From a virus (taxonomy: Duplodnaviria; Caudoviricetes): a DNA stretch of 57,461 nt. Below the pieces are notes generated by a model that worked only from the letters and a program-made list of their open reading frames with translations, ran no database searches and was not told where the DNA came from. Of the stretch, positions 9,186 through 51,602 are shown in pieces (the first letter of the stretch is position 1; the number at the start of each line of letters is the position of its first letter). The stretch is from positions 1-57,461 of IMG/VR virus record IMGVR_UViG_3300012038_000017; one strand, given 5' to 3'. The translations under genes and the position numbers were made by a program.

Positions 9186-9665
9186 CTAAATACCAGTTTC
9201 AAATAGATACTGTTGCAATCTGCAAAGGTCACGGACAAACTTATCCGCACTAATCTGGAATCTTGTCACATGTTGGTCCCAATATTTGTCGCATTCCTTC
9301 ACTTTGTGAAAGTAACAATACGCATCATTCACGCCACCTGTACGCAATGCGTCGATTGCGTAAATTCGATCAAGTAACTTTGGATATTTGTTTCCAAGTT
9401 CAGATAGATCAAGAATCTTATGGCCTGCCGGATAGGTTTCTGGATGGTAGAACATCTGGCAAAACTCTAATTCAATTCCTTCTTGCAAAAGACATGCTCC
9501 AGCTAAACACCCAGTACATTTATCTGCCGGATCATTGTCGTAATGAACAAGCCAATCGCCCATTGAAACTTTGAAGTTGGGATTCTTCAATTGCAATTCA
9601 AAATCTTCAATTGCAATTTGCAATAGTTCGTGCAACGTCGTTGCTTCCATTAATCGGTTATTCAT
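9186..9665 (-). CDS. hypothetical protein, paralog of 8703-9167
   Basis: Same shared motifs; GGAGG RBS before ATG 9665. Confidence 0.75.
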   Translation of the reverse strand: MNNRLMEATTLHELLQIAIEDFELQLKNPNFKVSMGDWLVHYDNDPADKCTGCLAGACLLQEGIELEFCQMFYHPETYPAGHKILDLSELGNKYPKLLDRIYAIDALRTGGVNDAYCYFHKVKECDKYWDQHVTRFQISADKFVRDLCRLQQYLFETGI

Positions 9666-9861
9666 CTCGACCAACCTCCAATACTACGATGAAATTATTC
9701 GGTCGCAACTTTAACACGCGAGTACGAACACGTTCGTACTCATCAACTGTCACTTGATTCCCGTTAATATAATAACGGTCAGGTGTGAATTGTTGAGACA
9801 TTCCACGGAATTCTTCAATGTAAAGACCACCGTTCTCGGCTGTGAATTCAATAATAAGCAT
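9658..9861 (-). CDS. hypothetical protein
   Basis: Tiled; TAATG coupling. Confidence 0.55.
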   Translation of the reverse strand: MLIIEFTAENGGLYIEEFRGMSQQFTPDRYYINGNQVTVDEYERVRTRVLKLRPNNFIVVLEVGRDE

Positions 9862-10082
9862 TACTTCCCTTTCAATTTAGCACTAAGCACTTTATCTAGT
9901 TCTTTCGCCGCGTCATTCCATTGCTTATACTGTTTTTGTTCCATTTTAGCTAAAGCGTTGTGTCTCTCCTTAAACTCAATATTCAATGAATTCGCCCATT
10001 GAAAAGATTTCTTTTTATGCCATGCTGCGCGTTCATAACAAAAATCACGTAGCCATAATAATGAACTCATTATTCGTCCCAA
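9861..10082 (-). CDS. hypothetical protein
   Basis: Tiled; start may be ATG 10070. Confidence 0.55.
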   Translation of the reverse strand: MGRIMSSLLWLRDFCYERAAWHKKKSFQWANSLNIEFKERHNALAKMEQKQYKQWNDAAKELDKVLSAKLKGK

Positions 10083-12831: not shown

Positions 12832-13248
12832 TTAACAACCCATCCTTCTTTCCGAATCTCTCATTCGTTCGTATTCACGTTGTTCTTCTTCAGCAGCAAT
12901 TACTCTTGAATCGTCAGTAACAGCAACAACACGAAGTCCGCCGCAGTTATAACAACATACATCGTAACGGCCACTACAATAATCCTCTGCAAATTCTGGA
13001 TCATTATTGAATTCCTCAGCGCTAATTCCACCGGCATCGATAGAAGGGTTAACATGTTTTCCTTTACCATCACAAGTTGGACAAACTTCCCACGTGAACG
13101 GAGTTTCAAATTCAGTTTCATTGCCTTCATCATCTTCAGCAATGATAGTTGCAACCATTCGCTTTTGATCCAATGCTCTGTACCACTTCTTGTGCGAACT
13201 AGCGCGCACACGATAGTCGGAATAATAGTTTCGATCTTCGCTATTCAT
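12832..13248 (-). CDS. DnaJ-type CxxCxGxG zinc-finger protein
   Basis: CPTCDGKG...CYNCGG. Confidence 0.65.
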   Translation of the reverse strand: MNSEDRNYYSDYRVRASSHKKWYRALDQKRMVATIIAEDDEGNETEFETPFTWEVCPTCDGKGKHVNPSIDAGGISAEEFNNDPEFAEDYCSGRYDVCCYNCGGLRVVAVTDDSRVIAAEEEQREYERMRDSERRMGC

Positions 13249-13460
13249 TATTTATCTCCAATCACAAAATGAGAAGCATCACAATCTTTGATATAGTCGT
13301 GCATTTGTTGCCGATAGAAATACGTTCCATCTAACAAGATACCGGAAGTGACAATTCCATTTGCATTCGCGCTAACAGCTTTCAATCGTACTCCATGCTT
13401 CGGCCATTGTTCAAATGGTACGTCAATTAGTTTATCCAATTGTTTTAATCGAACACACAT
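13248..13460 (-). CDS. hypothetical protein
   Basis: GGAG RBS; tiled. Confidence 0.55.
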   Translation of the reverse strand: MCVRLKQLDKLIDVPFEQWPKHGVRLKAVSANANGIVTSGILLDGTYFYRQQMHDYIKDCDASHFVIGDK

Positions 13461-13482
13461 AACAATTACTCCGAGTTCTGAA

Positions 13483-13548
13483 AAGTAACTTCAGTCACCG
13501 GCGGAGCTGTATTAATTAAATACGGCCCGCCAGTGTAGGAAACTACTT
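13483..13548 (-). ncRNA. intergenic hairpin family, copy 5 (subtype B)
   Basis: AAGUAGUUUC/GAAGUUACUU outer stem, CUA/ACU internal loop, long upper stem. Confidence 0.65.
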
Positions 13549-14004
13549 CTTTTTCGCAGCAGCTTCTTTTGCTTTCTTTTTCGCTTCCTGCTTTTTCTTT
13601 TCTAATTGTTGCACTTTCTTTTTCGCACGCATGATATCCATTTCAATTGAGCGCTCTTCAACTGAATCACCTCTACTAATCATTTGCTCAATTGAAGCTT
13701 CGGCTTTCGCAACGTGTTGTTCGTGAAACCACTTCAACCACTTGAAATAATCAAGTGGATCAGCAAAAGCAGATGCGCTTAATTGTTTATGCCGTTCCAT
13801 GTTGAAACCTGGTGTTTCACATGATTGCAATTTACCGCTCGGAACCGAATATTCGATGCGAGGTAATTTGCTACTTTTCTTCTTCGGTGTTATTTCCTCT
13901 GGTTTAGTTTCCTCTGGTTTAGTTTCCTCTGGTTTAGTTTCTTCATTCACAGTTTCAGTCAATTGTTCAGAATTCATAATCATTCTATCCCTTTCGCTTT
14001 TCAA
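13543..14004 (-). CDS. charged protein, paralog of 21314-22030
   Basis: Shared IExxVPxGK..S.ETPGF...HKxL...FAxPxDxFxW..W.H block; Lys-rich tail. Confidence 0.75.
   Translation of the reverse strand: MKSERDRMIMNSEQLTETVNEETKPEETKPEETKPEEITPKKKSSKLPRIEYSVPSGKLQSCETPGFNMERHKQLSASAFADPLDYFKWLKWFHEQHVAKAEASIEQMISRGDSVEERSIEMDIMRAKKKVQQLEKKKQEAKKKAKEAAAKKK
13893..13941. repeat. 15-bp tandem repeat x3 (EETKP)
   Basis: TTTCCTCTGGTTTAG x3. Confidence 0.9.
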
Positions 14005-24319: not shown

Positions 24320-25819
24320 GTGAGAGTGGTCTGCACAATAATTGTAGTGAGCGCGCTATTTGTTTTACCGGGAATTACACAGGAGCCAACACCAGCAAGA
24401 ATACCGACGCCTGCTGATGCTACGGGTTGGGCGCTTGCGGATTTAGCTCTCATCCAAGCATCAGATCGACCATTTCAACGGTATATATGGATACCTTCAT
24501 TTGGCGATAAGCGATGGATAGCTGCAATAAATTTCACAATCAATACCGCAGTATCTCATTCGTCAGTAATTCAATTAGGTGCTGAATGTGCAAACGGATG
24601 GTTATTGCGGTATGATCTTCGTCGTCTTGCACCTTCACCACAGCAATTAGCGAAGTTAATTCAGACGTGGGACTCACTTGCATTACAGGATTCTTATTTT
24701 CATATCTCATCATCTACCCTGGGGGTGAGCAAATTACCTGCTGCAATACTCGGACCACATTTGAAACAACCAGAAGCAGTAGCATTAGCTGGATTAAACC
24801 TATCATCCGGTGGCATATACAGGGGAGATTGGTTTATTGCTAAAGCTCTTTCGACATTAGAAGGTGGAGCTTATTACGAATTTTTGCAAATTCAAAGAGT
24901 TGTAGAAAAGAATAGAACACCGCAAGGAGTATTTTTAGCTAGTTTAGGTGTATTTGAAGAACAAACTAAGTTAATAAGTGGTGATGAAAGGATTGCTATT
25001 TTCCGTTCAAATGTGACTTCAAAAGCACGTCGGGCGGATATTTTGTATGGATTAGGTCGTCGAGGAGCACTTGCAACAATTACTCATGATATTTCAGATA
25101 ATGATGTTCAAGTTGAAGCTCATCCACTTAGAAATCTTTTAGCCTTTCAAGATAAAGCGAGAGAAGTGATTGTGCAGAAAGCAAATGGAATGCACGTTTT
25201 TGCCCTCTTTGATAATAAAGGGAATTTTCAAGATGCAGTTCCTCCTGATATTGCTGCCGATCATTTAGTTCCTGCACCACACACTAAAAACCTACAGCCA
25301 GCAATTTCTTGTATTAGATGTCATGGTCCGTTCGATGGTTATCATCCGTTGCCAAATGACGTTCAAACTCTCCTTACTTCTAAACTTGATGTCTTTACCG
25401 ATTTAGTAGATGTTAATAATTCAAGAGAAGCAATTATTGACAGACTTGCCGGACTTTATTCTGGTCAACCTGATCTTCCTGACGCGCCACTTGGTAGAGC
25501 GAGACGTGATTATAAAGCTGCTGTTTATAAAATAACGCAAGACTCATATCCTGATGAAGTATCACCTGTTGTCGCGGTAAGTAATCACATATCTGAAATC
25601 TATGCTAATTATAGATATGATGTTGTGAGTCCGCAGAAAGCAGCTTTGGAGTTAGGACTTCACTCACTTGATGAATTTGTAATTGGAGAAGGTGAAGCCG
25701 TCGATCCAGTAGTAGGAAGTTTGAAAGCAGGAATTTCAGTAAATAGAAGCGATTATGAGCATGTATATGCTGATATGGCATTGCAAGTAAGTCTCACCAG
25801 AAAAAAGCAGGAGAATTAA
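24320..25819 (+). CDS. exported protein with a CxxCH heme-c motif
   Basis: Hydrophobic N-terminal signal; ISCIRCHG; AAGGAG RBS. Confidence 0.75.
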   Translation: MRVVCTIIVVSALFVLPGITQEPTPARIPTPADATGWALADLALIQASDRPFQRYIWIPSFGDKRWIAAINFTINTAVSHSSVIQLGAECANGWLLRYDLRRLAPSPQQLAKLIQTWDSLALQDSYFHISSSTLGVSKLPAAILGPHLKQPEAVALAGLNLSSGGIYRGDWFIAKALSTLEGGAYYEFLQIQRVVEKNRTPQGVFLASLGVFEEQTKLISGDERIAIFRSNVTSKARRADILYGLGRRGALATITHDISDNDVQVEAHPLRNLLAFQDKAREVIVQKANGMHVFALFDNKGNFQDAVPPDIAADHLVPAPHTKNLQPAISCIRCHGPFDGYHPLPNDVQTLLTSKLDVFTDLVDVNNSREAIIDRLAGLYSGQPDLPDAPLGRARRDYKAAVYKITQDSYPDEVSPVVAVSNHISEIYANYRYDVVSPQKAALELGLHSLDEFVIGEGEAVDPVVGSLKAGISVNRSDYEHVYADMALQVSLTRKKQEN

Positions 25820-25821
25820 TT

Positions 25822-26400
25822 GTGGATTTGCCAGAAGTAGATGGAGTTGAATTTAAGATCATCGAAGGTTATCCTGACTATATAGTTGGGAGTGATGGAA
25901 CCGTTTGCAGTAAAAGAAGTAATAAAAGAGGGATCGAAAGATGGTGGACTCAAATGAGTCCAAGTCGAGATAATGCTGGATATCTAAGAGTTGGATTAAG
26001 AGTATTAAATTCTCCACGAAAGTTTTTCCTTGTCCATCGTCTTGTGGCAATGGCTTTTGTGTCAGGATTTCAACCTGAATTAACAGTTAATCACAAAGAT
26101 GGAAATAAACAAAACAATTCTAAATCTAATTTAGAGTGGTGTACTTATGGAGAAAATCATAAGCACGCTTTCAAACTTGGATTAAGAAATAGTCATGGTG
26201 AAGCTAATTCCAATTGCACTGTTTCAGATGAAGAAGTGAGAGAAATTATTAAATGTGTTGAGAATGGTGAATCGCAAAGATCGGTTGCTTTGCGCTTTGA
26301 TATTTCATATCAGACTGTGAATGACTATTGGTTGGGTAAGCGACGTGCGCGTAGTAACCAAAATTTAGTTGTCCTTCCTGAAAATAAGGAACTTATATGA
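25822..26400 (+). CDS. NUMOD4-HNH homing endonuclease
   Basis: IEGYPDYIVGSDG, VHRLVA, VNHKDGNKQNN..SNLEW, C-terminal HTH. Confidence 0.9.
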   Translation: MDLPEVDGVEFKIIEGYPDYIVGSDGTVCSKRSNKRGIERWWTQMSPSRDNAGYLRVGLRVLNSPRKFFLVHRLVAMAFVSGFQPELTVNHKDGNKQNNSKSNLEWCTYGENHKHAFKLGLRNSHGEANSNCTVSDEEVREIIKCVENGESQRSVALRFDISYQTVNDYWLGKRRARSNQNLVVLPENKELI

Positions 26401-27308
26401 AACTTGCAATCCTCGCATTACTTTTACTTTTGGTTTCATCTGCAACTTCAGATGCTTGTAATCGTTGTCGTCGATTTGGTAGCTCTTGCATTTATTATAG
26501 AGCACCAGTTGTTCAGTATGTACCTGCTGCGCAAATTGCACAACCGAATATTTTAGTTGTGCAAAATTCTTATCCTGCACCAATAGCTGCTCAAGGAAAT
26601 ACAGTCTATTCTTATCAACAAGCATCGACTCAGTATTCGGTTTCACCTGCTGAGTTATTTCGCCAAGCTGCTGATTTCAGCCGTGCCAGTATCCAGAGTT
26701 CACAACTCGCAGTAAACGGTTATAATCAATTAGCCAGCACGCAGCTTCAATTACAATCTCATTTGAACGAACCTCTTATCAGAAGCGCTGCAGCAATTCA
26801 GCTCTTAGAAGCTGCTGGATTATCCCAATCTGCTCCTGCGCAGCGATCTTCTATTTCATTACGTATTTATCAAGAGAGTAATGGAAATTGGAGAGTCGAT
26901 CAACAACAGCAATCTTCTGATCCGAATTCTCCAATTCAAGCTGACGGTAAATCTCAACAATCTTCATCACCAATTCAAGCACCTTATTTCCAAAAAGGTC
27001 AACAGACACAACTTCAATCAAATAGTGTAATCTCATCACGCTGTCTGAAATGTCATAGTTCAACCCTCACTGAACCAAAAGGTGAATTAGTTCTTGATCG
27101 TGCTATTTCACCTGAAATTTTCAGAGAAGCTATTATTAGAATCAAATCAAATGATCCGAAAGTTCGTATGCCTCCCGATGGGAGTCTTACTCCTGGCGAA
27201 GCAGGAGAAGTATTAAATGAACTTCTGGAACTTTCACAACCAGTAGCCGCCCAACTTCCAGAAAATGATGTTGTTCCACCTGCACCTCAAATTAACCCCA
27301 ACCAGTAA
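26397..27308 (+). CDS. exported protein with C-terminal planctomycete cytochrome c (PSCyt1-like) domain
   Basis: Signal peptide ending SDA; SRCLKCHS...KGELVLD...RI.S.DP.VRMPPDG.L (CxxCH plus distal Met). Confidence 0.82.
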   Translation: MKLAILALLLLLVSSATSDACNRCRRFGSSCIYYRAPVVQYVPAAQIAQPNILVVQNSYPAPIAAQGNTVYSYQQASTQYSVSPAELFRQAADFSRASIQSSQLAVNGYNQLASTQLQLQSHLNEPLIRSAAAIQLLEAAGLSQSAPAQRSSISLRIYQESNGNWRVDQQQQSSDPNSPIQADGKSQQSSSPIQAPYFQKGQQTQLQSNSVISSRCLKCHSSTLTEPKGELVLDRAISPEIFREAIIRIKSNDPKVRMPPDGSLTPGEAGEVLNELLELSQPVAAQLPENDVVPPAPQINPNQ

Positions 27309-27324
27309 TAAGGAGTTTCTCATT

Positions 27325-27633
27325 ATGAAGAAGTTCTTCATTCTCGCTGTTACTTTGCTTGCGTCATTCGTAATTACGAATGATATTCAAGCATGGCCAC
27401 GTCCACCACGTTTTGGTGGATTTTCACGTTCTGTCAATGTTCGGCGTGAAGTTGTTGTTCAACGCTCACGAAGTTTCGACGATTTCAGTTTCCGCTCACG
27501 TCCACAAATTCTTGTTATTCCGCAAAGTCATTGCTTCGGTAATAGCTTTGGTGGATTCGGTGGATTTGGTGGTGGCTTTCAACAGTCGTTCAGTAGTCAA
27601 TCGTTTTCCTCGCAATCGTTCTTTGGAAACTAA
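27325..27633 (+). CDS. secreted low-complexity F/G/S/Q/R-rich protein
   Basis: AAGGAG RBS; signal peptide ending IQA; FGGFGGFGGG and SQSF repeats. Confidence 0.75.
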   Translation: MKKFFILAVTLLASFVITNDIQAWPRPPRFGGFSRSVNVRREVVVQRSRSFDDFSFRSRPQILVIPQSHCFGNSFGGFGGFGGGFQQSFSSQSFSSQSFFGN

Positions 27634-27657
27634 TTCTTTACTCGGAGGTCTGCACAA

Positions 27658-27906
27658 ATGTTGAAGATCCCTTTATTTCTAATGTTTGTTATCTTCTTTC
27701 TTGCCGCTGCTGACGCAGCTACAAATGTTATTTGCAGGAATGGAAGGTGACAACCAGTATATTCCCAACCTACAGTTAGTAGGTCTTGTTCTGGATCATT
27801 ACACAAACCTTTAACCGCCGCAGAAAAGTATGCAGCGGCTAAAGAATACCGAAAGCAAGCGTATTATGCAAAGCATCCAAATATTAAGGAGAAGTCAAAG
27901 AAATAA
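27658..27906 (+). CDS. 82-aa secreted protein with in-frame TGA at codon 31 (recoded or pseudogene)
   Basis: GGAGG RBS; signal peptide; CRNGR-TGA then 51 more open codons to TAA and a terminator. Confidence 0.55.
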
Positions 27907-27934
27907 TGTCCATTAAATTGGACTTATCAACGCG

Positions 27935-27976
27935 CCACTTCGCATTCCCGCAAGAATGCGAAGTGGACGTTTTCTT
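27935..27976 (+). terminator. intrinsic terminator
   Basis: 13-bp stem CCACTTCGCATTC/GAATGCGAAGTGG then ACGTTTTCTT. Confidence 0.7.
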
Positions 27977-28018
27977 GTCAATTTTTGCGGAAATTAACAA
28001 GGAAACGAGGTTGATTTT

Positions 28019-28477
28019 ATGGCTCGCTTAACGGTAGAACAGAGATTTTGGAAAAAAGTTGGACCAGTAACAAATACAGGCTGCATGGAGTGGCTTGCTT
28101 ACCGTAATGATGATGGTTATGGTATATTTTCCCTTGAACGCGGATTAAATATAAAGGCACATCGTTATGCCTATTGGCTTAAACACGGTGATTTTGATGA
28201 GAATTTATTAGTTTGTCATACTTGTGATAATACACTTTGTGTAAATGTTGCGCATCTTTTCTTAGGCAGTAGAAAAGACAATACTGGTGACATGCTTAGG
28301 AAAGGACGTTCTGTGTCATCTTTGACAGTGGAACAAGTAATCGAGATTCGTCGTAGGTATTGGGAAGAAAGTGAATTACTTCGTGTACTTGCTGAGGAAT
28401 TCAGTGTTGGAATAAGTGGTATCTACTCAATAGTGTGTAATCGAACTTGGAAACATTTACTTTCAAATCAAAAGTAA
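28019..28477 (+). CDS. HNH homing endonuclease
   Basis: RFWKKV..CMEW..GYG..AHRYAY..VCHTCDN..CVN..HL; C-terminal HTH. Confidence 0.9.
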   Translation: MARLTVEQRFWKKVGPVTNTGCMEWLAYRNDDGYGIFSLERGLNIKAHRYAYWLKHGDFDENLLVCHTCDNTLCVNVAHLFLGSRKDNTGDMLRKGRSVSSLTVEQVIEIRRRYWEESELLRVLAEEFSVGISGIYSIVCNRTWKHLLSNQK

Positions 28478-28526
28478 TTGTTAGTTGATTTTGCATCACC
28501 CTTTCTTGAAAATAAGGAGAAAAGAA

Positions 28527-28784
28527 TTGACCGAAACCCAAAAAGAAACCAAGCATGAACACGCAGCAACAAAACCAACGCAATACGATCAACCCGGCGC
28601 GAGTTCCTACGTTGGAGTTCCAACATCACAAATCACGGAAGAAAATCCTTACGGTAATTTGCCAAATGATCCGGCAGGATTCAAAAGAATAGTTACGAAA
28701 GGGCCGGACGAATTCGCAAAGGAAGATCGAGAACGGGAAGAAAAGCAAGCTGCTGAGAAGGAAAAAGAAGCAAAGAAGAAATAA
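28527..28784 (+). CDS. small charged hypothetical protein
   Basis: AAGGAG RBS before TTG 28527. Confidence 0.6.
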   Translation: MTETQKETKHEHAATKPTQYDQPGASSYVGVPTSQITEENPYGNLPNDPAGFKRIVTKGPDEFAKEDREREEKQAAEKEKEAKKK

Positions 28785-28949: not shown

Positions 28950-29165
28950 ATGTTCAGTCTACTTGCCCAAGCAGCATTCGGTGGTTATTCTTTAATCCAG
29001 CTTGCGATCTTTATCATCGTAGTAGCTGGAGTTGTAGCTATCGTAGTAGTGATTTTGAAGCAACTTGGTGTAACAATTCCACCTTGGCTAATTGCAATTT
29101 TGTGGATAGTGTTAGCCGTGATCGTCGGAATTTTTGCAATTAAAGTAATTGCATCAATGCTATAG
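28950..29165 (+). CDS. 71-aa two-TM membrane protein, holin-like
   Basis: Two hydrophobic helices separated by KQLGVTIPP; GAAAGG RBS. Confidence 0.55.
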   Translation: MFSLLAQAAFGGYSLIQLAIFIIVVAGVVAIVVVILKQLGVTIPPWLIAILWIVLAVIVGIFAIKVIASML

Positions 29166-33183: not shown

Positions 33184-34515
33184 ATGATACTCCAGACACA
33201 GCCAATTACAGAGGCACCGAAGTGCCATTGGGAGAAATTCAGGTATCATCCTGTTCAATCTGCACTTTGGGTTAATCGAAGTCAGCACGAAGAAGTTGTT
33301 GCTGGTCGTGGTAGCGGTAAAACAGTATTATGTCGGAGAAAGATGATTCTTGACATGGCTTTATCAAAGCCGTGGAATGATCCTTTATATTATTATGTAT
33401 TACCTACTTTCCAGCAAGCAAAACGAGTTGCATGGTATCCTTTTTTGCGAGATATACCTAAGAATTGGTATAATCCCCGTACAGGAGTCAACAGAACTGA
33501 CCTCTCGATTGAATTGTATAATGGATCAAAACTTTACATCATTGGAGCAGATAAACCAGCACGTCTTGAAGGAAATCAGGCCGATTGGGTTATGGTTGAT
33601 GAAGGTTCTGACCAAAAACCAGGATTGGTTGAGAATACAATTTTCCCTATGCTCACAAGGAAAAACGGTAAGTTTACAAGATTGGGTATTCCGAAAAGAA
33701 CAGGCATTGGGAGAGTTGAGTTTAGGGAGTATTATGAACGTGGAATGCGTGGTGAGGGAGGAGTTAAATCCTTTTTTTGGAAAACGATTGAAACGTGTAC
33801 CCCAAAAGAATTAGAATTGATTGAAGCACGTCGGGCCAATATGGACCCGAAGAATTATGAAGAACAATATGAAGCGAAATGGTTGGATATTGGTGGAAGT
33901 GTTTACTATGGTTTTACCGAAGCAAACCTTTCGCACGAAGCAAAATACGATCCGAAACTTGAAATAATGGTTGGTTGTGACTTTAATGTTACTCCGATGA
34001 GTTGGACATTAGGGCACTTTACAGACGGTAAACTTTACATCTTCGATGAAATTCATTTAGAAGAAACGCATACGCAAGCGACGATGGATTATCTTCATGG
34101 TAAGTATTACACTCACATGGCCGGATGGCGTTTCTTTGGAGATGCAAGCGGACGAGCAAGAAAAACCTCAGCTACTCGATCAGATTATGCAATTATTAAA
34201 AACGATGCTAGATTCGGACAAAAGAAAGTACATTTCCCTCCACGTAATCCTCACGTGCGGGATAGAATCGCCTCAGTCAATAGAGCATTTCAAAATGCAG
34301 CCGGTGAGATTAGCTGTTACATCAATCCGAAGTGCCAAAAACTAATTCGCGATTTGAATTCGATGAGCTACATTGAAAACACGATGGAATTAGAAGATTA
34401 TAGCGGAACGCAAATTGGGCATATGTCAGATGCTTTTGGATATAAGGTTCATTGGCTAATGCCAATTCGTGTTGAGTATACTTCGATTCCGGCAGTATGG
34501 AGTACGGCGAGTTAA
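33184..34515 (+). CDS. terL: terminase large subunit
   Basis: VAGRGSGKT, VMVDEG, C-terminal nuclease GCDFN, DASG, HMSDA. Confidence 0.95.
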   Translation: MILQTQPITEAPKCHWEKFRYHPVQSALWVNRSQHEEVVAGRGSGKTVLCRRKMILDMALSKPWNDPLYYYVLPTFQQAKRVAWYPFLRDIPKNWYNPRTGVNRTDLSIELYNGSKLYIIGADKPARLEGNQADWVMVDEGSDQKPGLVENTIFPMLTRKNGKFTRLGIPKRTGIGRVEFREYYERGMRGEGGVKSFFWKTIETCTPKELELIEARRANMDPKNYEEQYEAKWLDIGGSVYYGFTEANLSHEAKYDPKLEIMVGCDFNVTPMSWTLGHFTDGKLYIFDEIHLEETHTQATMDYLHGKYYTHMAGWRFFGDASGRARKTSATRSDYAIIKNDARFGQKKVHFPPRNPHVRDRIASVNRAFQNAAGEISCYINPKCQKLIRDLNSMSYIENTMELEDYSGTQIGHMSDAFGYKVHWLMPIRVEYTSIPAVWSTAS

Positions 34516-34532: not shown

Positions 34533-35915
34533 ATGCCACTTGCACTTGAGCCGGTAATCAAATTATCTGATCCAGATAATAAAAAGAGTGAGAAAACTCC
34601 TGCGCAGATTCTCGATCATATTGGTTGGGATTCTCGAATCTTTCACCATCAACATCCACTTGATTATCGTCAAATACGCTGCTATTCGAAAAACCCTACT
34701 GCGAAACTTGCAACGTGGGCAATTCTTTCGCAGATGATTCATACGCCGTGGGTGCCAAAGAATTACAGAGGTAAAGCGACAAAAGAGATGATGGACTATC
34801 TCGAACAGTCCCTCACTCCATTGCGAAATTTGTTCTTGATGCACGCAGTATTTAATACGCTTAATTATGGTTGGGGACCATTTGAAGTTGTTTGGAAACC
34901 AGAAGAAGGATATGTGTATATCCATGATTTTAAGGCACTACTCCACGATTTTACAGATATTCTTGTTTACGTTGATAGTGGTCAATTTGCTGGTTTTACT
35001 AATGAAACATTTGGATTTACGGAAGTAAACAATTCCGCGAATAAAGTTCTCGGAATGTATGCTCTTAATACGAACTTTGAATACGAAGGAACAGATTATT
35101 ATGGCGAATCGGTATATGAAACCATCGCGCCCGCCATTAATGCTTGGAACAATGTGGAGAAAGCAGCTTCGCGCTATGATTCTAAAATTGCCGGAGCGAC
35201 CTGGGTCATTTATTATCCTGTCGGCAAAACACCGTACAATGGAGTGCCAGAGGAAAATGATGTTATCGCTCGTAGATTGCTCACCACGCTTGAATCATCA
35301 GGATGTTTAGCAATACCTGACGAAATACAAGATTGGATGGATGATACACTTGATAGAGAAGTCAAAGGGAAATGGCGAGTAGAACTTATTACTGCAACAG
35401 GTGGTGGACAAGATATGTTCATCGACCGAGAAAAGTATCTCGACGTATTAATGATGCGAGGATTTGGATTCGCAGAACGATCTATTCTCGAAGGTAAGCA
35501 CGGAACGAAAGAAGATGCACAAGAACACGGAGATATTTCTCTCGCAATTGTTGATACTAGGCATCGCTTGCTCACTACTTGCCTTAATCTACAAACTATT
35601 CCTCATGCTCTCAGTATAAACTTTGGAAAGAAAATGGCGTATGAAGCGGGTATTGAACCTGCTCCGCTAGTTGATTCACAGTTTGCTCTTATTAAAGACA
35701 TCTACCGAGTTTTACTTCAGAATCCAAGAGTTGCTGAGGCTGAAGTTGAACGGATTAATATGGTAGATATGAAAGTAGAATTGGGAATACCGAATGATGG
35801 AAAGAAAACTGAATTACCTGAACCAGAGCCGACAGGTGGCGGACCTCCTTCATTAACTGCTACACCGAAAAAAGAACCTGGAAAGCCAACAGTGAAGGAG
35901 CAAAAGAATGCCTAA
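34533..35915 (+). CDS. portal protein (Mu gp29/DUF935-like)
   Basis: Follows TerL; LNYGWGPFEVVW, YYGES and AQEH segments. Confidence 0.85.
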   Translation: MPLALEPVIKLSDPDNKKSEKTPAQILDHIGWDSRIFHHQHPLDYRQIRCYSKNPTAKLATWAILSQMIHTPWVPKNYRGKATKEMMDYLEQSLTPLRNLFLMHAVFNTLNYGWGPFEVVWKPEEGYVYIHDFKALLHDFTDILVYVDSGQFAGFTNETFGFTEVNNSANKVLGMYALNTNFEYEGTDYYGESVYETIAPAINAWNNVEKAASRYDSKIAGATWVIYYPVGKTPYNGVPEENDVIARRLLTTLESSGCLAIPDEIQDWMDDTLDREVKGKWRVELITATGGGQDMFIDREKYLDVLMMRGFGFAERSILEGKHGTKEDAQEHGDISLAIVDTRHRLLTTCLNLQTIPHALSINFGKKMAYEAGIEPAPLVDSQFALIKDIYRVLLQNPRVAEAEVERINMVDMKVELGIPNDGKKTELPEPEPTGGGPPSLTATPKKEPGKPTVKEQKNA

Positions 35916-36492
35916 TTACACTTCACAAGAGAAGTTAAATATTGTGTTCGGAGAAACGAATGTTATTCGTTGGGCGAATCTCTCGAACACTAATAACATC
36001 AACAACAAAGAAATCAAGGATCGAATTGACTACTTCTGTTTGATCGCAACTTCTTATGTTAACGGTAGATTCCAACTCACGCGTTACACTGATGATATTC
36101 CTTTCGTTGTTGACCATGTACCCCACATGGTTGAATTTATCACAACTTTGCTTGGTGGTGCTCTCCTATTTGACGGTAGAGTTAATCGAGTAATGTCTGA
36201 GGATAAAGAGGTTAATAAGAGTCGTCGTGAGTTCGGAAAGTTAATGCGACAGATTCTTTGCGGTCAATTGAAATTAGAAGATCCTTTATCTGGTGAACTC
36301 CTTGGAACCTCCTGCTACCTTGCACCATCTGTTGCGTTAGCCCCCAGCAGCGGTGCAGGTAGCGGGAATGGTTGTTGTGCAGGTTGTAATTGTCCTTGTT
36401 GTCGTTGGTTGAGTTGTTTTACTACCTGCCATAACTCAAGTTGCTATTGTTACTCTTGCATCAATTCACGAGTTCTCATTTACGCAAATTAG
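35908..36492 (+). CDS. head-tail adaptor (Mu gp36/DUF1320-like) with Cys-rich tail
   Basis: YTSQEKL..FGE...ATSYVNG..RY..P pattern; 11 Cys in 30 residues near the C-terminus. Confidence 0.7.
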   Translation: MPNYTSQEKLNIVFGETNVIRWANLSNTNNINNKEIKDRIDYFCLIATSYVNGRFQLTRYTDDIPFVVDHVPHMVEFITTLLGGALLFDGRVNRVMSEDKEVNKSRREFGKLMRQILCGQLKLEDPLSGELLGTSCYLAPSVALAPSSGAGSGNGCCAGCNCPCCRWLSCFTTCHNSSCYCYSCINSRVLIYAN

Positions 36493-40405: not shown

Positions 40406-41314
40406 ATGGCAGTATGCTTAGCTCCTCCTCCAGTACGTTCTGGTCGTCATGGATTTGTGATGGAGTATACTGCTCCAGTTACAAATCAAAGAATGTCACG
40501 TATTCGTAATTGGACTTTGGATACAGTTACGAATCCATTGCTACGTGTTTATTCTGGAACAAGGTTTGGTACTCAGCGAGAAAGAGGAATTCCTGAATAT
40601 CAAGGAAGTTTTGCAGGTTGGGGATCAATTCCACCTTTGTTTGCTGGCGATAATTTTGTTTTCCTTGGGTATACTGCACCTGATAGTGGTCAACCATGCA
40701 CTACAGGTTGTGCGTACAGTGTTCCAGCAATTGTTTCTGAATTAACAATTAATTGGAGTTGGACACATGAAGAACGTCGATCAGATTGGGTGATTAATTT
40801 TATGAGTAGAGGTGCAGCTACCTTTATTCCTGATTTTGATGATCCATGTGATGATGCTTTGTACTGTCCAGATTTTCAATGTCTGTGTCCGTTGTTTTGG
40901 GATTGCTATGAAGTTGAATTTGATTTTTGCAACATTCATGCTGCAACACTCACATTCAATCCAAATCTTATTGAGTATTCAAATTGTTCAACGATTTGTC
41001 AGAAGCAACGAATTGCCGGAAATCTTGATTGGTCTTTAGATATTATGGATCACAATAATTGTAAGATTCCAATTATTGGTGATGACTATCATATTGTGAT
41101 TCCAACTGATGCTGCTGGAAAGACTTGGGATTTAAAATGGGGTCATCATTCTGGTGTCACCAATTATCTCGTCGATATCGAAAATGGTGCAGTAATTGGG
41201 AAAACAAGTCGCTTTGACATGCAAGCTATTAATTGTTGCGTTGATCCTGAACTTGGAGTAATTCTTGATCCAAACTTGAGACAAGTTTGGCCGTATCAAA
41301 TTGGTTCTTCTTAA
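40406..41314 (+). CDS. putative major tail tube protein, Cys-rich
   Basis: Precedes chaperones and tape measure; SGRHG..IRNWTL tube-like N-terminus; 14 Cys. Confidence 0.65.
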   Translation: MAVCLAPPPVRSGRHGFVMEYTAPVTNQRMSRIRNWTLDTVTNPLLRVYSGTRFGTQRERGIPEYQGSFAGWGSIPPLFAGDNFVFLGYTAPDSGQPCTTGCAYSVPAIVSELTINWSWTHEERRSDWVINFMSRGAATFIPDFDDPCDDALYCPDFQCLCPLFWDCYEVEFDFCNIHAATLTFNPNLIEYSNCSTICQKQRIAGNLDWSLDIMDHNNCKIPIIGDDYHIVIPTDAAGKTWDLKWGHHSGVTNYLVDIENGAVIGKTSRFDMQAINCCVDPELGVILDPNLRQVWPYQIGSS

Positions 41315-46071: not shown

Positions 46072-48279
46072 ATGAATATTGATAGCATTCGTGATCGAAC
46101 AATAGATAATCAACTCTTGAATTTTCAAGAGATGAATGTCATATTGAATATGCTCCGTGGACTAACGAGCGGGTCAATGCAGGAGAGAAATTATTTAGGA
46201 AATACAATTCTTCCAGATCGTCCGTATATTGGGACTATCAACGTAAAATTCGATCAATATCTTACTTACGATATACCGCCATACTCTGTATTTCCTTTAA
46301 TATTCAATGGGCATGAATTTTTACCGTATATAGCTACGGCCGATTTTAGTGGTGAAGGGGAATCACCTATATTCTGCACTAATGGACCGTTCCCATTAAA
46401 GACTGGCTCGAAATTAGATTGTTTTATCGTTGGTGATGATACCCCAAGATTAGTGCATTATACATTATTTAATACTGGTTCAGTAGTGCCACAATTTGGA
46501 GATAAGGTGCAATTCTTTGGCGCTTTTGTTGGGGGTAGCGATACTATTCTTGCAGTTGAAACTTTTTCAGATCGTGATAATAAAGGGCATTTTGTATGCG
46601 TTTCAGAACCAGATACAACTACTCAAAGAATATGGGTATTGCGAACTTATTTAGCTAAAGATGATGTAAAATTCAAACCATTAATGCTAATGAGGGCGCA
46701 TGATTGGATGGACGTAGGTTGTGCTGTTGAAGTTTCTATTTGGAATTTCTATAGTGATTCATGGGAACCTGATGCTGCTTTAGCTGGTGGTGAACCAGTT
46801 GCTTCTGCTATAGCTCAAGATGTTGGCAATCGTAATTTCCTTAAACCAAGTGATCTTTGTTGGGGTAGATTTTTAGGAACTACAAAATCAAGCTCTAGTA
46901 GTGATGATGACTCAGTAGATGTATATGAAATCATTGGTGAAAATGGTTTGCATCAAACAGGAAAAGCAATGACACCTGTTGATTGCGGACAATCTGCCGA
47001 TTTTGAAATTACTTGTGGTGATCCAGAAGCAGGATCGCCGGGTGAGTATTTTCCAGAAGATAAAGATATTGATATGGAGGATCTTTCTGCTAATGATTAT
47101 TTAACATTAAGAAAACAATTAAATGGAGAATCTGTCGCTTGCCCAGGAGACATTAAAAAACATACAATTGAGGCTTGCACCCCCAGCAAAGGTTGCGTGC
47201 GACATATATTTGAAGGTGAATTTGCCAAACTCCGTTATATCACTTCAAATAGAAAATGGGAAGCTCGACCAGTACCGGATACACTATTTGCTAAAGGAAC
47301 TCTTTACGCAGAAATGTGTCCAGAAAATGACGGTCAAATACAAGGTTTACAACCATACGGTTGTTGTGCTGGACAACAAACAGTTACTATTCCAAACGGA
47401 ACAGCGCTAAATACCAGTGATTTCAAACTTGCTGGAAAGACTGGGTATAATGTATTCGCTGTTTATAGCGGTGTGGGTAATACTTGGATGATTATCCAAG
47501 TATTACACGAAGAAGTAGAACTTCTTGAAGATGTTATATCTGACATCGGCACTTCTGATGATTGTCCATCAGTATCTGGAAAGAAGCGTAAATTCGCATT
47601 GATGACTTGTGTTCCAGAACCAGAACCATTTGATCTATTAACTTTCGAGAAGATGGATGCAATTACTGGTATCACTTTAGGAACGTGTGGTCTTGAATTA
47701 GAAAAGACTTCAATTTGTGTTGCAGCAGTTGGTGCTAGTAGTGCAGGTGGTACAGTTGATTTTCAGCAAGTTGAAGTTGTAACTAATGTATTTGCTGGTC
47801 CTGATTGCAGCTTTACAATAGATAAAAAACTTGTATGTGTTGCCGGATCATTAGGAGCTTCTCCGTCACTTGCCACTCTTATGACTGTAGATGTTGATGT
47901 AGTAACATCATTTGAAGTTTATGATACTAGCGGTGATTTGCTTAGTGCGCCAGATGATGGCGGAACGTGTCAGGTACTTGCGAAAACTAAAACTATCAAA
48001 GTCTGTGCCGCATCAACAGAAAGTCCATTTGCACTTGATGTGATTACATTTGAATTGCAATCTCTATTGTATAATGTTTATGATGATGGTGAAGATATTA
48101 TTGGATGCTGGTTAGATATATTTGTTCCGTGTGTTGGTGGCTCTTTCTGCGATGTAGTTATTCCAGTTGATCCTTGCCCACCAGAAGGTAGTGGTACACC
48201 AGAAGAATTAATCATGCACGAAAGAATGCTAAGAGAAGCTGAACAACTGAGAATAAAATTAGATGGGTCTGATTCGTAA
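46072..48279 (+). CDS. Cys-rich tail tip/fibre protein with ~40-aa repeats
   Basis: Repeats of V.VVT.V....C......K..ICV in the C-terminal third. Confidence 0.55.
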   Translation: MNIDSIRDRTIDNQLLNFQEMNVILNMLRGLTSGSMQERNYLGNTILPDRPYIGTINVKFDQYLTYDIPPYSVFPLIFNGHEFLPYIATADFSGEGESPIFCTNGPFPLKTGSKLDCFIVGDDTPRLVHYTLFNTGSVVPQFGDKVQFFGAFVGGSDTILAVETFSDRDNKGHFVCVSEPDTTTQRIWVLRTYLAKDDVKFKPLMLMRAHDWMDVGCAVEVSIWNFYSDSWEPDAALAGGEPVASAIAQDVGNRNFLKPSDLCWGRFLGTTKSSSSSDDDSVDVYEIIGENGLHQTGKAMTPVDCGQSADFEITCGDPEAGSPGEYFPEDKDIDMEDLSANDYLTLRKQLNGESVACPGDIKKHTIEACTPSKGCVRHIFEGEFAKLRYITSNRKWEARPVPDTLFAKGTLYAEMCPENDGQIQGLQPYGCCAGQQTVTIPNGTALNTSDFKLAGKTGYNVFAVYSGVGNTWMIIQVLHEEVELLEDVISDIGTSDDCPSVSGKKRKFALMTCVPEPEPFDLLTFEKMDAITGITLGTCGLELEKTSICVAAVGASSAGGTVDFQQVEVVTNVFAGPDCSFTIDKKLVCVAGSLGASPSLATLMTVDVDVVTSFEVYDTSGDLLSAPDDGGTCQVLAKTKTIKVCAASTESPFALDVITFELQSLLYNVYDDGEDIIGCWLDIFVPCVGGSFCDVVIPVDPCPPEGSGTPEELIMHERMLREAEQLRIKLDGSDS

Positions 48280-48835
48280 CGGAACTAGAATACTTCGAGC
48301 TAAGTCTGGAAAGTTAGCTCACTCTCTCAATTGCTGTTGCAAGAAATTAAATTGCAGTCAGAAATTGTGCGATTGTGCTGTTACTACTCCACCATGTTTA
48401 TCTGCGCCTTCATACCGTTACCGAATGAAAACTGGTGACTTCACTAATTGCTTGCCAAATTGCTTCGATCAAGTAAATACTAATTTTGTTAATGCTGGTG
48501 CTGGTCCTGGTGGTGTCGGTATTTCAATGGCAAGATTAGGTGGAACAAGTTGCTGTTCTTTTGGTCCCGGCGCAACTATTGGCGTTTGCAATTGTGCTAT
48601 TCAACCTGCAATGATAACTCCCGGTCAAATGGGTGTTCTCACTTTAATGGGTTGTGAAGAATATAATGGTGAATGTCGTGTGAGAGCTAAACTTGCTATA
48701 GCTAATGCAGAGTTTATGTGCTTCCCGTTCCGATTAGATGCAACTATTGCTGCGCCCAATGTAATGACCTTAATTGCAGGTACTACTTTCCCTTGTTGCA
48801 ATACACCGACTGAAATGGAAGTTTGGGCTGGATAA
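48263..48835 (+). CDS. small Cys-rich tail-associated protein
   Basis: 18 Cys in 190 aa including NCCC. Confidence 0.55.
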   Translation: MGLIRNGTRILRAKSGKLAHSLNCCCKKLNCSQKLCDCAVTTPPCLSAPSYRYRMKTGDFTNCLPNCFDQVNTNFVNAGAGPGGVGISMARLGGTSCCSFGPGATIGVCNCAIQPAMITPGQMGVLTLMGCEEYNGECRVRAKLAIANAEFMCFPFRLDATIAAPNVMTLIAGTTFPCCNTPTEMEVWAG

Positions 48836-48837
48836 TT

Positions 48838-49968
48838 ATGACATTAGCATCACGAATAAAGATTCAGGAGCAAACGAAGAAGGCATTTGAGCAGTATGAA
48901 AGAGTTAAACGTGCTGAATCAAAGCAAATGGCTATTTATTCACAATTTGATTGTGGATACCGTTCTCCAGCCAATACATGCACTTTGTATGGTGATTGTT
49001 CTCAAATTCCTAAAGACGGTGCAGCTTATTGCGGTAGTTGTTCTAGTAGGTTGATTGAACTTGGAATTGCATTAGTGCAACCAACTCTTAATGAATTACC
49101 TTCACAACTACTCGAACCAATATTTAGGCATAGAGTTGGTAATTTGGCAGTCGATCAGTTTCAGCTTAATTGTGGTATAATTAAGTATGAAGGTAAGACT
49201 TTACTCGCTTATCGTAAAGGTTGGGGTAATGCAGAAGTCTGGTTAGCTGAATTGGATGATAATTTTGATGCAATATCGAATGTAAAACTAGAAGTGCCTG
49301 CTACAAAATATAATGAATTAGGGTCAGAAGATCCTCGTTTATTCATTCACGAAGGTAAGCTATTCTTAATGTTTATTGGGTATACGCAAGCGACAGGTAA
49401 GCGTGCAACCCATATTCTTTACTCGCTTATCTCATCGAATGGTGCAGTAGTTTCTACTTTCCTTCCGTATCTATCTGCTAGAGGCGCTTGGGAAAAGAAT
49501 TGGGGATTCTTTTCTTACAGGAAGGAATTGTATGCTGTCTACTCGATTCATCCACATATCATCATTAAGGTAAGTGATGATCGTGCTTGGATCAGTACAA
49601 TTACTTCATTAGTGTATCCTGATTATTTAGGTTCGCCTCGTAGCGGTTCTTCACCATTCCTTCATAATGATGAATGGTATTGCTTTACGCATAATTGTTT
49701 TCGTTATGGAAATAATCGTTGGTATGGAATGTGTTGTTATACATTTGAGAATAAACCACCATTTAAGCCATTAAGGTATGCAGATGGATTTTTAATGTTG
49801 CCGGATAAAAAAGATCGACCAGCTTCGCATGTTCCACACGTTATTTTCCCGAACGGTGCTTACTTGGAGAATAATGAGTGGATAGTAAGTTACGGATACT
49901 ATGATAAGTACAGTGAAGTTGTGAAATTTGATGCGATGCAGCTTGAGGGAGTATTGAAGCCAATATGA
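48838..49968 (+). CDS. GH130/GH43-like five-bladed beta-propeller glycosidase with N-terminal Cys module
   Basis: QLNCGI, SEDPRL, EKNW, RSGS, VIFPNG, SYG..D. Confidence 0.75.
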   Translation: MTLASRIKIQEQTKKAFEQYERVKRAESKQMAIYSQFDCGYRSPANTCTLYGDCSQIPKDGAAYCGSCSSRLIELGIALVQPTLNELPSQLLEPIFRHRVGNLAVDQFQLNCGIIKYEGKTLLAYRKGWGNAEVWLAELDDNFDAISNVKLEVPATKYNELGSEDPRLFIHEGKLFLMFIGYTQATGKRATHILYSLISSNGAVVSTFLPYLSARGAWEKNWGFFSYRKELYAVYSIHPHIIIKVSDDRAWISTITSLVYPDYLGSPRSGSSPFLHNDEWYCFTHNCFRYGNNRWYGMCCYTFENKPPFKPLRYADGFLMLPDKKDRPASHVPHVIFPNGAYLENNEWIVSYGYYDKYSEVVKFDAMQLEGVLKPI

Positions 49969-51602
49969 AGCTATATTGTATATGTTGCGATCAAATTCCG
50001 TGGCGAAAAGAAGCCGCGATTAAAGAATTCGCAACACAAAACCTTGATGTTGAAATGTTTCAAGGTATCCACGGACCAACATTTGGTTTAACCGCAAGAT
50101 TGCCATGTTTCGACAGTAAGCCGTATTTTATTTCACCTGGGTATATTGGCCTTCATCTTTCTAACTTATTATTATGGAGTAGATGTTGTGAGAGAGATGA
50201 TGAGCATATTGTAATCTTTGAGGATGATCCAGTTCTTTTGCCGAACTTTATGGCTCGCCTCAATGAAGTCATTGAAGTTCTTCCGAGGTATTGGGACATT
50301 TGTAATCTTTCACCTTGTTGCGATGAAGAATCTAAAACAACGCAGGATGTTAATGAGTTATTGAAAGTAACGAAATATCCGATGTGCATGAACGCAATGC
50401 TTTATAATAAGAAAGCGTTGCCATTCATTATCAAGCAATTGAGTGTAATATGCAACTCGCACGTTGATATTGAGATGGAGAAGTTAGTTCTTCCATATCT
50501 CAATCAATACTGTGTCAAGGCACCGCTTGCAAAACAAGTTGTCGATTATAGCGTATGTGGCAGAGGAGAAAGAACATATAAAGATTTAGAAGGGTGGGAA
50601 TTTGATTTCAGTGTCATATATGATGAAGCATTAGATAGGGTACAAGCTCCATCTGTATTTGTTGAAATTGGTTCATGGTTCGGCAAATCTGCTTCGTATA
50701 TGGCAGAAGAAATTAAACGTAGATACTTACCAGTCAACTTCTACGCGGTTGATACTTGGAAAGGATCAATGAATCAACCAGAAATGCTGGAAGTAGTTCA
50801 GAAACATGGCGGAGATTTATTCAAGAAGTGGCAGATGAATATGTCGGTCACTGGAGCTATTGACTTTGTAATCCCGATACAGAAAGATTCAATTGAAGCT
50901 GCTAAGCAATTTGAAGATAAATCGGTTGATTTTGTTTTCTTCGACAGTGAGCATACATATAAGCATTTATTAGCTGAACTAGCTGTTTGGCTGCCGAAGT
51001 TGAAAGATACTGGTGTTGCAGCAGGTCACGATCTTGTTTTATTTCCAGAAGTGCGTAAATGCGTACATGCAGTATTTGGAAATCAATACAGAACATATAA
51101 GAATTCTTGGATCGTCGAAACACATCCGAATAAGTATGCAGCTAATACGTCGCCAGTTAGAATGACATCAAGAGAAAGAATTGCTAAACAAACAAAAGCG
51201 GCGATAGAGCGACGCCCGCCAAAACGAATGCGTCAAAATAAAGGACATTATCCTTTAGTTTTATTTAATTGCATTCATCGCGGAACAGATAAAATAGGTG
51301 AAGTACCATGCGGCTGTTCTACTTCACCACCAATATTTAAATGCAATCATCCTTATTTACAACCACCAAAGTTTAGTGGTGAGTGTGTTAAGATAATTGA
51401 AATTGGAGCAAGAGAGCAGCTAATAGAAGAAAGAAAGTTACTTGTCTGTCAGAGTTGTACTCTGAGAGTTTCTGCACCTGGCGTTCCAGGTACAGTAGAA
51501 GAATGGAAATTACTTAATAATTCAGAAGGAGATAATAATGTCTCAAGAGCTTCCGACCAGACCGGAACAACAGAGGAAAGAAAAGAAACCGCCAGCACCT
51601 AA
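49965..51602 (+). CDS. GT25 glycosyltransferase + class I SAM methyltransferase + Cys-rich C-terminal module
   Basis: GYIGLHLSN, IFEDD and HVD (GT25); VEIGSWFGKS, AVDTW, FFDSEHTY and GHD (Methyltransf_24-like). Confidence 0.8.
   Translation: MKLYCICCDQIPWRKEAAIKEFATQNLDVEMFQGIHGPTFGLTARLPCFDSKPYFISPGYIGLHLSNLLLWSRCCERDDEHIVIFEDDPVLLPNFMARLNEVIEVLPRYWDICNLSPCCDEESKTTQDVNELLKVTKYPMCMNAMLYNKKALPFIIKQLSVICNSHVDIEMEKLVLPYLNQYCVKAPLAKQVVDYSVCGRGERTYKDLEGWEFDFSVIYDEALDRVQAPSVFVEIGSWFGKSASYMAEEIKRRYLPVNFYAVDTWKGSMNQPEMLEVVQKHGGDLFKKWQMNMSVTGAIDFVIPIQKDSIEAAKQFEDKSVDFVFFDSEHTYKHLLAELAVWLPKLKDTGVAAGHDLVLFPEVRKCVHAVFGNQYRTYKNSWIVETHPNKYAANTSPVRMTSRERIAKQTKAAIERRPPKRMRQNKGHYPLVLFNCIHRGTDKIGEVPCGCSTSPPIFKCNHPYLQPPKFSGECVKIIEIGAREQLIEERKLLVCQSCTLRVSAPGVPGTVEEWKLLNNSEGDNNVSRASDQTGTTEERKETAST

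Follow-up and report, generated by a model that had tools for sequence, protein, structure and literature searches.

The stretch of DNA analyzed here (the window) is a virus record of 57,461 bp from IMG/VR (IMGVR_UViG_3300012038_000017; Caudoviricetes), with an estimated completeness of 88%. It carries a cluster of genes, designated orfA, orfB, orfC, and orfD (Table 1), the first two of which encode putative exported c-type cytochromes. Replication genes, for a primase/MCM-type helicase, an SNF2 helicase, and a DNA polymerase A, lie on the minus strand. The late genes run along the plus strand from approximately 21.3 kb and include those for TerL (33184-34515), a Mu-type portal, a head protease, and the major capsid protein. 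As these TerL, portal, head protease, and capsid genes are located downstream on the plus strand, the cytochrome cluster is situated at the start of the rightward late arm. No tRNA gene was detected in the window using ARAGORN.

An original prediction, made from the letters of the window, had described four signal-peptide genes interrupted by an HNH gene, among them a 499-amino-acid (aa) protein with SCIRCH and a 303-aa protein with CLKCH and MPP. Both of these proteins are as stated and orfC is as described, while the fourth gene, orfD, yields its product only if an in-frame TGA codon is decoded. The prediction did not include orfC as a third conserved gene, an association with proteases, the in-frame TGA, or a second HNH insertion. 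Export of the orfA, orfB, and orfC products was called from hydrophobic N termini in the sequence.

Table 1. Features of the cytochrome cluster and adjacent genes in the window
Feature	Position	Strand	Description
orfA	24320-25819	+	499 aa; predicted to be exported or membrane anchored; single CxxCH
orfA central domain	24845-25525	+	Residues 176-402; predicted five-stranded beta-sheet domain, then CxxCH helix; weakly P460/c'-beta-like
orfA haem-c motif	25310-25324	+	CIRCH (in ISCIRCH); C331, C334, H335
First HNH gene	25822-26400	+	Homing endonuclease with C-terminal helix-turn-helix; free-standing between orfA and orfB; PF13392, E = 1.7e-8
orfB	26397-27308	+	303 aa; signal peptide ending A-x-A; predicted C-terminal His/Met class-I-type cytochrome c domain
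orfB CLKCH	27042-27056	+	Residues 216-220
orfB MPP	27168-27176	+	Residues 258-260
orfC	27325-27633	+	102 aa; AAGGAG upstream; predicted signal peptide; R/V/Q-rich, then G/F/S-rich low-complexity stretches
orfD	27658-27906	+	Signal peptide, C-x4-TGA, then a conserved coding tail of 51 residues; candidate for a selenoprotein or a read-through product
orfD stem-loop	27748-27798	+	Starts at the TGA; SECIS (selenocysteine insertion sequence)-like; apical hairpin 27768-27784
Second HNH gene	28019-28477	+	Endonuclease; PF13392, E = 5.1e-9; inserted with a 41-aa open reading frame between orfD and the next gene
71-aa protein	28950-29165	+	Two hydrophobic helices; holin-like by topology only; conserved in L058/L059

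Relatives of orfA were identified at 28 loci in IMG/VR. Partial matches (L024 to L027) were set aside, and the remaining 24 loci together with the window made up the survey (n = 25), in which gene order was counted by BLAST clustering of open reading frames (ORFs) located within 5 kb of orfA. An orfB homolog followed orfA in 20 loci, being directly adjacent in 16, separated from it by an HNH gene in two (the window and L012), and separated by small ORFs in a further two. In L022, the gene after orfA encodes a 405-aa CxxCH...MPP protein that was left unclustered by BLAST, aligns with the orfB family, and has a weak Pfam match; with this locus included, 21 of the 25 have an orfB-like gene after orfA. 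Of the four loci without such a gene, three end within approximately 400 bases of orfA. A small signal-peptide ORF (55 to 147 aa) starts within 500 bases of the orfB stop codon, mostly within 50 bases, in 19 of 22 loci. V, Q, R, F, G, P, and N abound in the mature parts of these orfC-type proteins, where runs such as R-Q-x-V-V-V and V-x-P-Q recur, and a homolog of the window orfC itself is present in L058, L059, and L060, being clear in the latter two. As orfB-like genes follow orfA in 21/25 loci and orfC-type genes follow orfB in 19/22, the conserved unit is orfA-orfB-orfC, and this gene order recurs in unrelated phages. The concern raised with the original prediction, that the cluster might be a one-off capture, was dispelled by this survey of synteny in IMG/VR. 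At one jumbo-phage locus (L028), a radical SAM protein is encoded directly after the orfC-type gene (12905-13942).

The orfA product begins with a short hydrophobic segment, and a hydrophobic 12-mer was found within the first 90 residues of 210 of the 254 homologs that start with M. From this segment in the window protein and its homologs, we infer that the orfA product is exported to the periplasm. Exactly one CxxCH is present in each of 262 orfA homologs (262/262). The residues C331, C334, and H335 are invariant across the 35 sequences of alignment A1, and CxxCH is also invariant in alignment A3. A number of polar residues are likewise identical in all 35 sequences, e.g., H128, R168, D170, Y185, Y186, R224, R237, D257, and E282. 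Conservation of CxxCH in homologs, on which the original prediction had been staked, thus holds for 262/262 orfA and 26/26 orfB sequences.

Neither Pfam nor PHROGs contained a match for orfA, and PHROGs also lacked one for orfB, orfC, and the upstream 230-aa ORF. Using a word-indexed search, 170 orfA relatives were found at E <= 0.001 among 8,000 candidates scored, and the orfA part was without a Pfam domain in all of them. An exhaustive profile search returned 2,800 clusters (50% identity) at E <= 0.001, 784 of which were found at E <= 1e-30. The orfA family is large and phage centered, is seen almost exclusively on phage contigs, and has no Pfam model. The sole domain fusion seen within the phage family is a C-terminal CAP/YkwD domain (PF00188) in two homologs (P0022 and P0042); ten longer homologs gave no additional Pfam domains, and fused relatives of greater length were not found among proteins of 875 to 2,495 aa. 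In L060, the orfA homolog (246-1729) is split between two overlapping frames (267 and 228 aa) by a frameshift or an assembly error; where L059 overlaps, this region is unbroken.

In orfB, the residues C216, C219, H220, M258, and P259 are the only ones invariant across 26/26 sequences. All 18 of the orfB homologs examined from the surveyed loci have a hydrophobic N terminus and one CxxCH, with MP positioned 39 to 50 residues downstream. A search with the PSCyt1 family (PF07635) had been suggested for orfB; the window protein fell short of the cutoff, as detailed below, and the homolog in L006 passed it with 24.2 bits. Two further proteins, P0124 and P0125, carry PF07635 in precomputed matches. 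Weak leads to small cytochromes, with scores of <=0.84, were obtained from an Atlas search with orfB.

That orfA and the orfB cytochrome domain act jointly is best supported by their fusion in bacteria. Two Acidobacteriota proteins (L063 and L064; 818 and 684 aa) consist of a signal peptide, a CxxCH...MP domain, and then an orfA-like region. The orfA profile built from A1 matched the 818-aa protein over orfA residues 41 to 488, with a probability of 99.1% (E = 1.3e-18). The orfB profile matched the N-terminal domains of the two proteins with probabilities of 42% and 79% (E = 2.6e-4 and 1.6e-5, respectively), and CxxCH and MP were in register in these alignments. By sequence, the phage orfA/orfB pair is a split form of these bacterial fused proteins. 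A fusion of large SCxxCH domains to PSCyt1 in bacteria had been put forward in the original prediction. This is substantially borne out by the fusion of a cytochrome c domain with an orfA-like region in the two proteins, on which Pfam gave only subthreshold Cytochrome_CBB3 matches rather than PSCyt1. PSCyt1 appears in an Atlas lead only, consisting of Planctomycetota clusters of approximately 600 aa in which 56 to 70% of members carry the domain (score, 0.86), with leads in Myxococcota as well. The fused proteins differ from the phage pair in being single polypeptides with extra C-terminal repeats, and they lack both the long N-terminal part of orfB and an adjacent orfC.

An AlphaFold2 model of orfA, built with a 35-row alignment, was predicted with a predicted local distance difference test (pLDDT) score of 91.1 and a predicted template modeling score of 0.90. 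The strands of the central sheet span residues 223-227, 237-243, 251-257, 280-286, and 292-298, and are followed by a helix (329-338) that carries CxxCH; the domain modeled alone gave a pLDDT of 77.7. When the whole model was compared with 48,161 chains using VIA-align, entries for cytochromes c'-beta and P460 occupied ranks 1 to 4 and 6. These were 8brk (Z = 5.4; 104 residues aligned with a root mean square deviation of 3.3), 6hiu (4.7), 7s5o (4.6), 6amg (3.8), and 2je3 (3.7), all of which fall on residues ~186 to 389. With the domain alone, the same five chains took ranks 1 to 5 (Z = 5.3 to 4.0), with 106 to 120 of their 135 to 158 residues covered. The orfA alignment was also compared, using hhalign, with 24 aligned PF16694 domains taken from genomes of Acidobacteriota, one unpublished genome being excluded; the match extended over 93 columns (P = 3.8e-4), with the last hairpin and CxxCH in register. 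According to an excerpt of a 2025 review (PMC11928373), the P460/c'-beta fold is a five-stranded antiparallel sheet followed by the haem motif and is called unique to two families, and the superfamily oxidizes NH2OH (hydroxylamine) or binds NO (nitric oxide) or CO (carbon monoxide).

The modeled structure is suggestive of a resemblance of orfA to P460/c'-beta, not of membership. Like the cytochromes P460 and c'-beta (PF16694; 8brk, 7s5o, 6hiu, 6amg, and 2je3), orfA is predicted to be an exported mono-haem c protein with its motif after a five-stranded sheet. It differs from them in its length of 499 aa, its large extra N- and C-terminal domains without a known fold, and an insertion of approximately 16 residues before CxxCH. 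H128, invariant in the phage proteins, corresponds to a glycine in the single bacterial fusion included in the alignment, and none of the Met residues is invariant among the 35 aligned sequences. A haem in orfA would thus be without a conserved sixth ligand across the wider family, and it would most likely provide an open site, for ligand binding or catalysis.

The distribution of orfA was examined in several collections. Four IMG/VR loci are situated on contigs of 146 to 408 kb, where the operon lies beside a 1,200-aa protein with a Tail_P2_I baseplate domain; these contigs are jumbo phages, not chromosomes. Among 50,697 GenBank phage records, one matched orfA, an uncultured 595-kb phage with 26% identity, and no cultured phage did so. 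A narrow orfA pattern led to three loci in a collection of one genome per species, all of them in metagenome bins. In 401 Acidobacteriota genomes, full-length orfA was found in one, on a 2.6-kb contig, and the distant fused relatives in two. Cellular relatives were thus rare and distant in the sets searched, and no close cellular homolog belonging to a known pathway was found in them.

Unrelated proteases are encoded within 5 kb of orfA in 13 of the 25 loci and comprise seven matrixins, three subtilases, two astacins, and one trypsin-like protein. In seven loci, a protein of approximately 210 aa with HExxHxxGxxH is encoded immediately before orfA or with one small ORF in between. Two matrixin representatives matched the Pfam family Matrixin (E = 6e-12 and 2e-27), one of them also carrying PG_binding_1, and a subtilase representative matched its family with E = 2e-51. 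Examples of proteases beside the operon are found in L001 (9258-9896), L004 (7880-8782), L010 (3620-4738), L016 (13455-14648), and L006 (13236-14000), most of them without a signal peptide. Other frequent neighbors are tail-fiber or beta-helix proteins and genes of the capsid module. Downstream of the operon, the first 2.5 kb hold small ORFs with hydrophobic helices at approximately three times the density found in the rest of the loci (counts of 7 versus 6). In the window, the 71-aa protein with two such helices had no match in Pfam or PHROGs.

Two HNH genes interrupt the cluster in the window. The stop codon of the first overlaps the start of orfB. Both genes are absent from L059/L060, in which orfB is 65% identical and orfA and orfB abut; the HNH genes are therefore later insertions. 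A related HNH gene (9473-9946) is found at the same orfA/orfB junction in L012, although the orfA proteins are only approximately 34% identical, and homing at this junction may be recurrent. At the second insertion, a comparison of L059 (1962-2453) with the window (27906-28477) showed that the orfD frame in L059/L060 continues without a stop into a homolog of the window ORF at 28485-28784. The window gene that follows this HNH gene restarts with TTG, downstream of AAGGAGG at approximately 28527. Rfam gave no intron around the second HNH gene within 27500-28000, and a joint lacking the HNH gene was not found for the window's strain in contigs from four sequencing runs.

The plain standard-code ORF of orfD comprises 30 residues, i.e., the signal peptide plus a few residues. 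As codon 31 (27748-27750) is TGA, the 82-residue product implied by the end coordinate of the original prediction would require recoding, and the window has no start codon in frame after the TGA. This codon is kept in L058, a strain with 97% identity, and in the more distant relatives L059/L060 at the 65% level. The frame is conserved on both sides of the TGA, and the tail shows runs of synonymous changes across conserved residues. The TGA was unchanged in contigs from all four sequencing runs (4/4), in which one strain differs in the two codons that come next, and no Cys variant at this position was present in these contigs. TGA is the ordinary stop codon of 13 of the 62 ORFs in the window, so the genome-wide code is standard. 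Searches of IMG/VR with the single protein and with an alignment gave no relatives of orfD, and no Cys-bearing homolog was found. Genes resembling orfD were seen after orfB only in the window, L058, and L059/L060, and not in the 20 more distant loci; orfD is therefore a clade-specific addition to the operon.

A stem-loop begins at the TGA. Bacterial SECIS elements follow a rule on spacing and on a G in the loop; in orfD, the apical hairpin lies 17 nucleotides downstream of the TGA and a G is among the first two loop bases. Using RNAalifold with three sequences from two lineages, 14 pairs were obtained, two of which showed compensatory double changes. Folds of single sequences were no better than those of shuffled ones (z = -1.06 to +0.43), and no SECIS family of Rfam matched at orfD. 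We give roughly even odds to decoding of the TGA as selenocysteine, in which case the mature peptide would carry C-x4-U, and to the alternative of leaky read-through. In a literature search on selenoproteins and bacteriophage, no report of a bacteriophage selenoprotein was among the matches listed; if the UGA and its hairpin do specify selenocysteine, orfD would be a phage-encoded exported selenoprotein.

The sequence words of the region are present in at least 24 public runs labeled as freshwater sediment or groundwater metagenomes, and no RNA data are on record among the sequencing runs listed for these words. The window capsid protein shares 31 to 36% identity with capsid proteins from phages of Proteobacteria and Cyanobacteria and has 1 Cys in 345 residues. 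The original prediction had offered redox control, envelope remodeling, and oxidation of a Cys-rich virion as possible roles of the cluster. Three late proteins are unusually rich in Cys, at 9.4% (48263-48835), 7.2% (35908-36492), and 4.6% (40406-41314). The end of the late arm (48823-51602) encodes a Glyco_hydro_130-like protein and a family 25 glycosyltransferase/methyltransferase protein, which possibly modify surface sugars.

The orfA/orfB pair is best read as a putative late-expressed periplasmic oxidoreductase. At a probability of about 0.6, we consider orfA, orfB, and orfC to be a conserved phage operon that encodes a two-haem redox unit in the periplasm, one that would act on a protein or envelope target rather than on a metabolite. 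The following sequence of steps can be proposed from what is established on the maturation of c-type cytochromes and on periplasmic enzymes with two haems. The three products would be exported late in infection by the host Sec system, and the CxxCH of orfA and that of orfB, one in each protein, would receive haem from the host Ccm or Ccs system. The His/Met cytochrome c domain of orfB would then carry electrons between periplasmic carriers of the host and the haem of orfA, where chemistry would take place on a haem seated on a five-stranded sheet as in P460/c'-beta. The co-encoded secreted orfC protein, or envelope proteins of the host, may be the target. This preference for a protein or envelope target is a loose one, held because the family is phage centered, orfC accompanies the pair, proteases are frequent, and the position of the operon is like that of the lambda lysis cassette. 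The sequences themselves show the motifs with their invariance, the synteny, the bacterial fusion, and the distribution centered on phages.

Several results weigh against this two-haem redox unit. The window orfB reaches 18.7 bits against PSCyt1 (E = 0.0027), below the 22-bit cutoff, and in L014 no orfB is found within 5 kb of orfA. The neighbors of the bacterial fused genes have no common theme, being GWxTD proteins, a methyltransferase, and an MFS transporter for one and an ECF sigma factor and a Ser/Thr kinase for the other. For the link to P460/c'-beta, the VIA-align Z values (approximately 4.0 to 5.4) are below the level at which the tool is trustworthy. Foldseek gave nothing significant with the whole orfA model (PDB and BFVD) or with the domain model (PDB), the latter ranking 7s5o_C only 36th (E = 1.4). 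Pfam PF16694 did not match orfA at E <= 1, the rows returned when the orfA profile was compared with PDB sequences were at chance level only, and the hhalign probability was only 36%, with a score that derives in part from CxxCH itself. No recognizable protease is encoded beside the operon in the window, and the associations with proteases and small membrane ORFs were drawn from low counts, with roughly called ORFs and no formal control. Families of holins, endolysins, and spanins in Pfam and PHROGs were unmatched across the window ORFs tested.

The same data can be explained in other ways. The operon could encode an auxiliary metabolic or detoxifying enzyme, in which a P460/c'-beta-like orfA binds or converts NO, hydroxylamine, or peroxide within the periplasm of a sediment bacterium under infection and orfB is its electron partner. 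The sole structural echo of orfA is to P460/c'-beta, a superfamily described in the excerpted review as acting on NH2OH, NO, and CO (PMC11928373), the phage is found in freshwater sediment and groundwater runs, and phage-borne c-type cytochromes are on record, such as a SoxD with CxxCHG in an excerpt of PMC8190135. However, auxiliary genes of this kind are usually close to host genes, whereas the orfA family is large in phages and its cellular relatives are rare and distant; the statistically weak link to P460, together with the company of orfC and the proteases, which such an enzyme leaves unexplained, makes this account rather unlikely. That orfA is not a haem protein at all, its CxxCH binding a metal or forming a disulfide and orfB being the sole cytochrome, is very improbable. 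No Pfam cytochrome model matches orfA and its fold resembles that of a haem family only weakly, but the C, C, and H are invariant in 262/262 homologs with exactly one motif in each, export is predicted, and orfA is paired with a cytochrome c domain (21/25 loci) and fused to one in bacteria.

A further alternative is a noncatalytic device for the envelope or lysis, in which an anchored orfA and secreted orfB and orfC would form a spanin-like complex or a superinfection barrier, the haem being structural or serving as a timer that senses redox state or gas. Most orfA homologs have a predicted N-terminal anchor with a periplasmic body, and the operon is placed after the start of the late arm and ahead of the terminase gene, upstream of the 71-aa two-helix protein. 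Small membrane ORFs are enriched downstream, and most of the proteases lack a signal peptide, as do enzymes released by holins. Yet a His/Met cytochrome partner that is fused to orfA in bacteria speaks for electron transfer, the many invariant polar residues of the 35 orfA sequences resemble an active site, and no lysis gene was recognized; we regard such a device as quite improbable. A bolder form of the two-haem redox unit, which must be called unlikely as it stands, would join orfA, orfB, and orfC with the proteases and the selenocysteine peptide of the clade in a phage-specific redox machine that, late in infection, chemically alters a secreted low-complexity protein or envelope proteins of the host, i.e., a new system for lysis, egress, or a superinfection barrier built on a third, enlarged branch of P460/c'-beta.

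In literature searches on phage-borne cytochrome c, PSCyt1, and viral c-type cytochromes, no phage pair resembling orfA or of the PSCyt1 type was present among the matches listed. The operon is a divergent variant of known haem-c proteins that is conserved and previously unstudied. If its proteins carry haem, many uncultured phages use the cytochrome c maturation of their hosts for periplasmic redox chemistry of their own, a practice unseen in model phages. The orfA family, being large and without a Pfam model, and having a confidently predicted fold with no solved relative, is a target for structural and enzymological work. If the relation to P460/c'-beta were confirmed, a fold called unique to two families in the excerpt of the 2025 review (PMC11928373) would be extended, and the question would arise of whether phages influence NO and hydroxylamine chemistry in sediments. 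The association with proteases and orfC points to an unexplored envelope function.

Compared with known systems, the operon shares some features with the lysis cassette of lambda-type phages, as both are placed ahead of the terminase gene in the late arm and in both an anchored protein of the periplasm precedes small secreted ones. Unlike those of the cassette, the operon proteins are far larger, have haem motifs, and matched no lysis family. Cyanophage plastocyanin is a phage-borne electron carrier described as an auxiliary gene. The phage SoxD with CxxCHG, as described in the excerpt of PMC8190135, resembles the operon in being a phage gene for an exported redox protein matured by the host. 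Auxiliary genes such as those for SoxD and plastocyanin are close copies of host pathway genes, whereas the operon is phage centered, has no pathway context, and is accompanied by orfC and proteases. Bacterial cytochrome c peroxidase, MauG, and SoxAX are two-haem periplasmic enzymes with one electron-transfer and one catalytic haem. As in these enzymes, a His/Met haem would feed a catalytic haem in the orfA/orfB pair; this is an analogy only, with no relation in sequence or fold seen in any of the searches.

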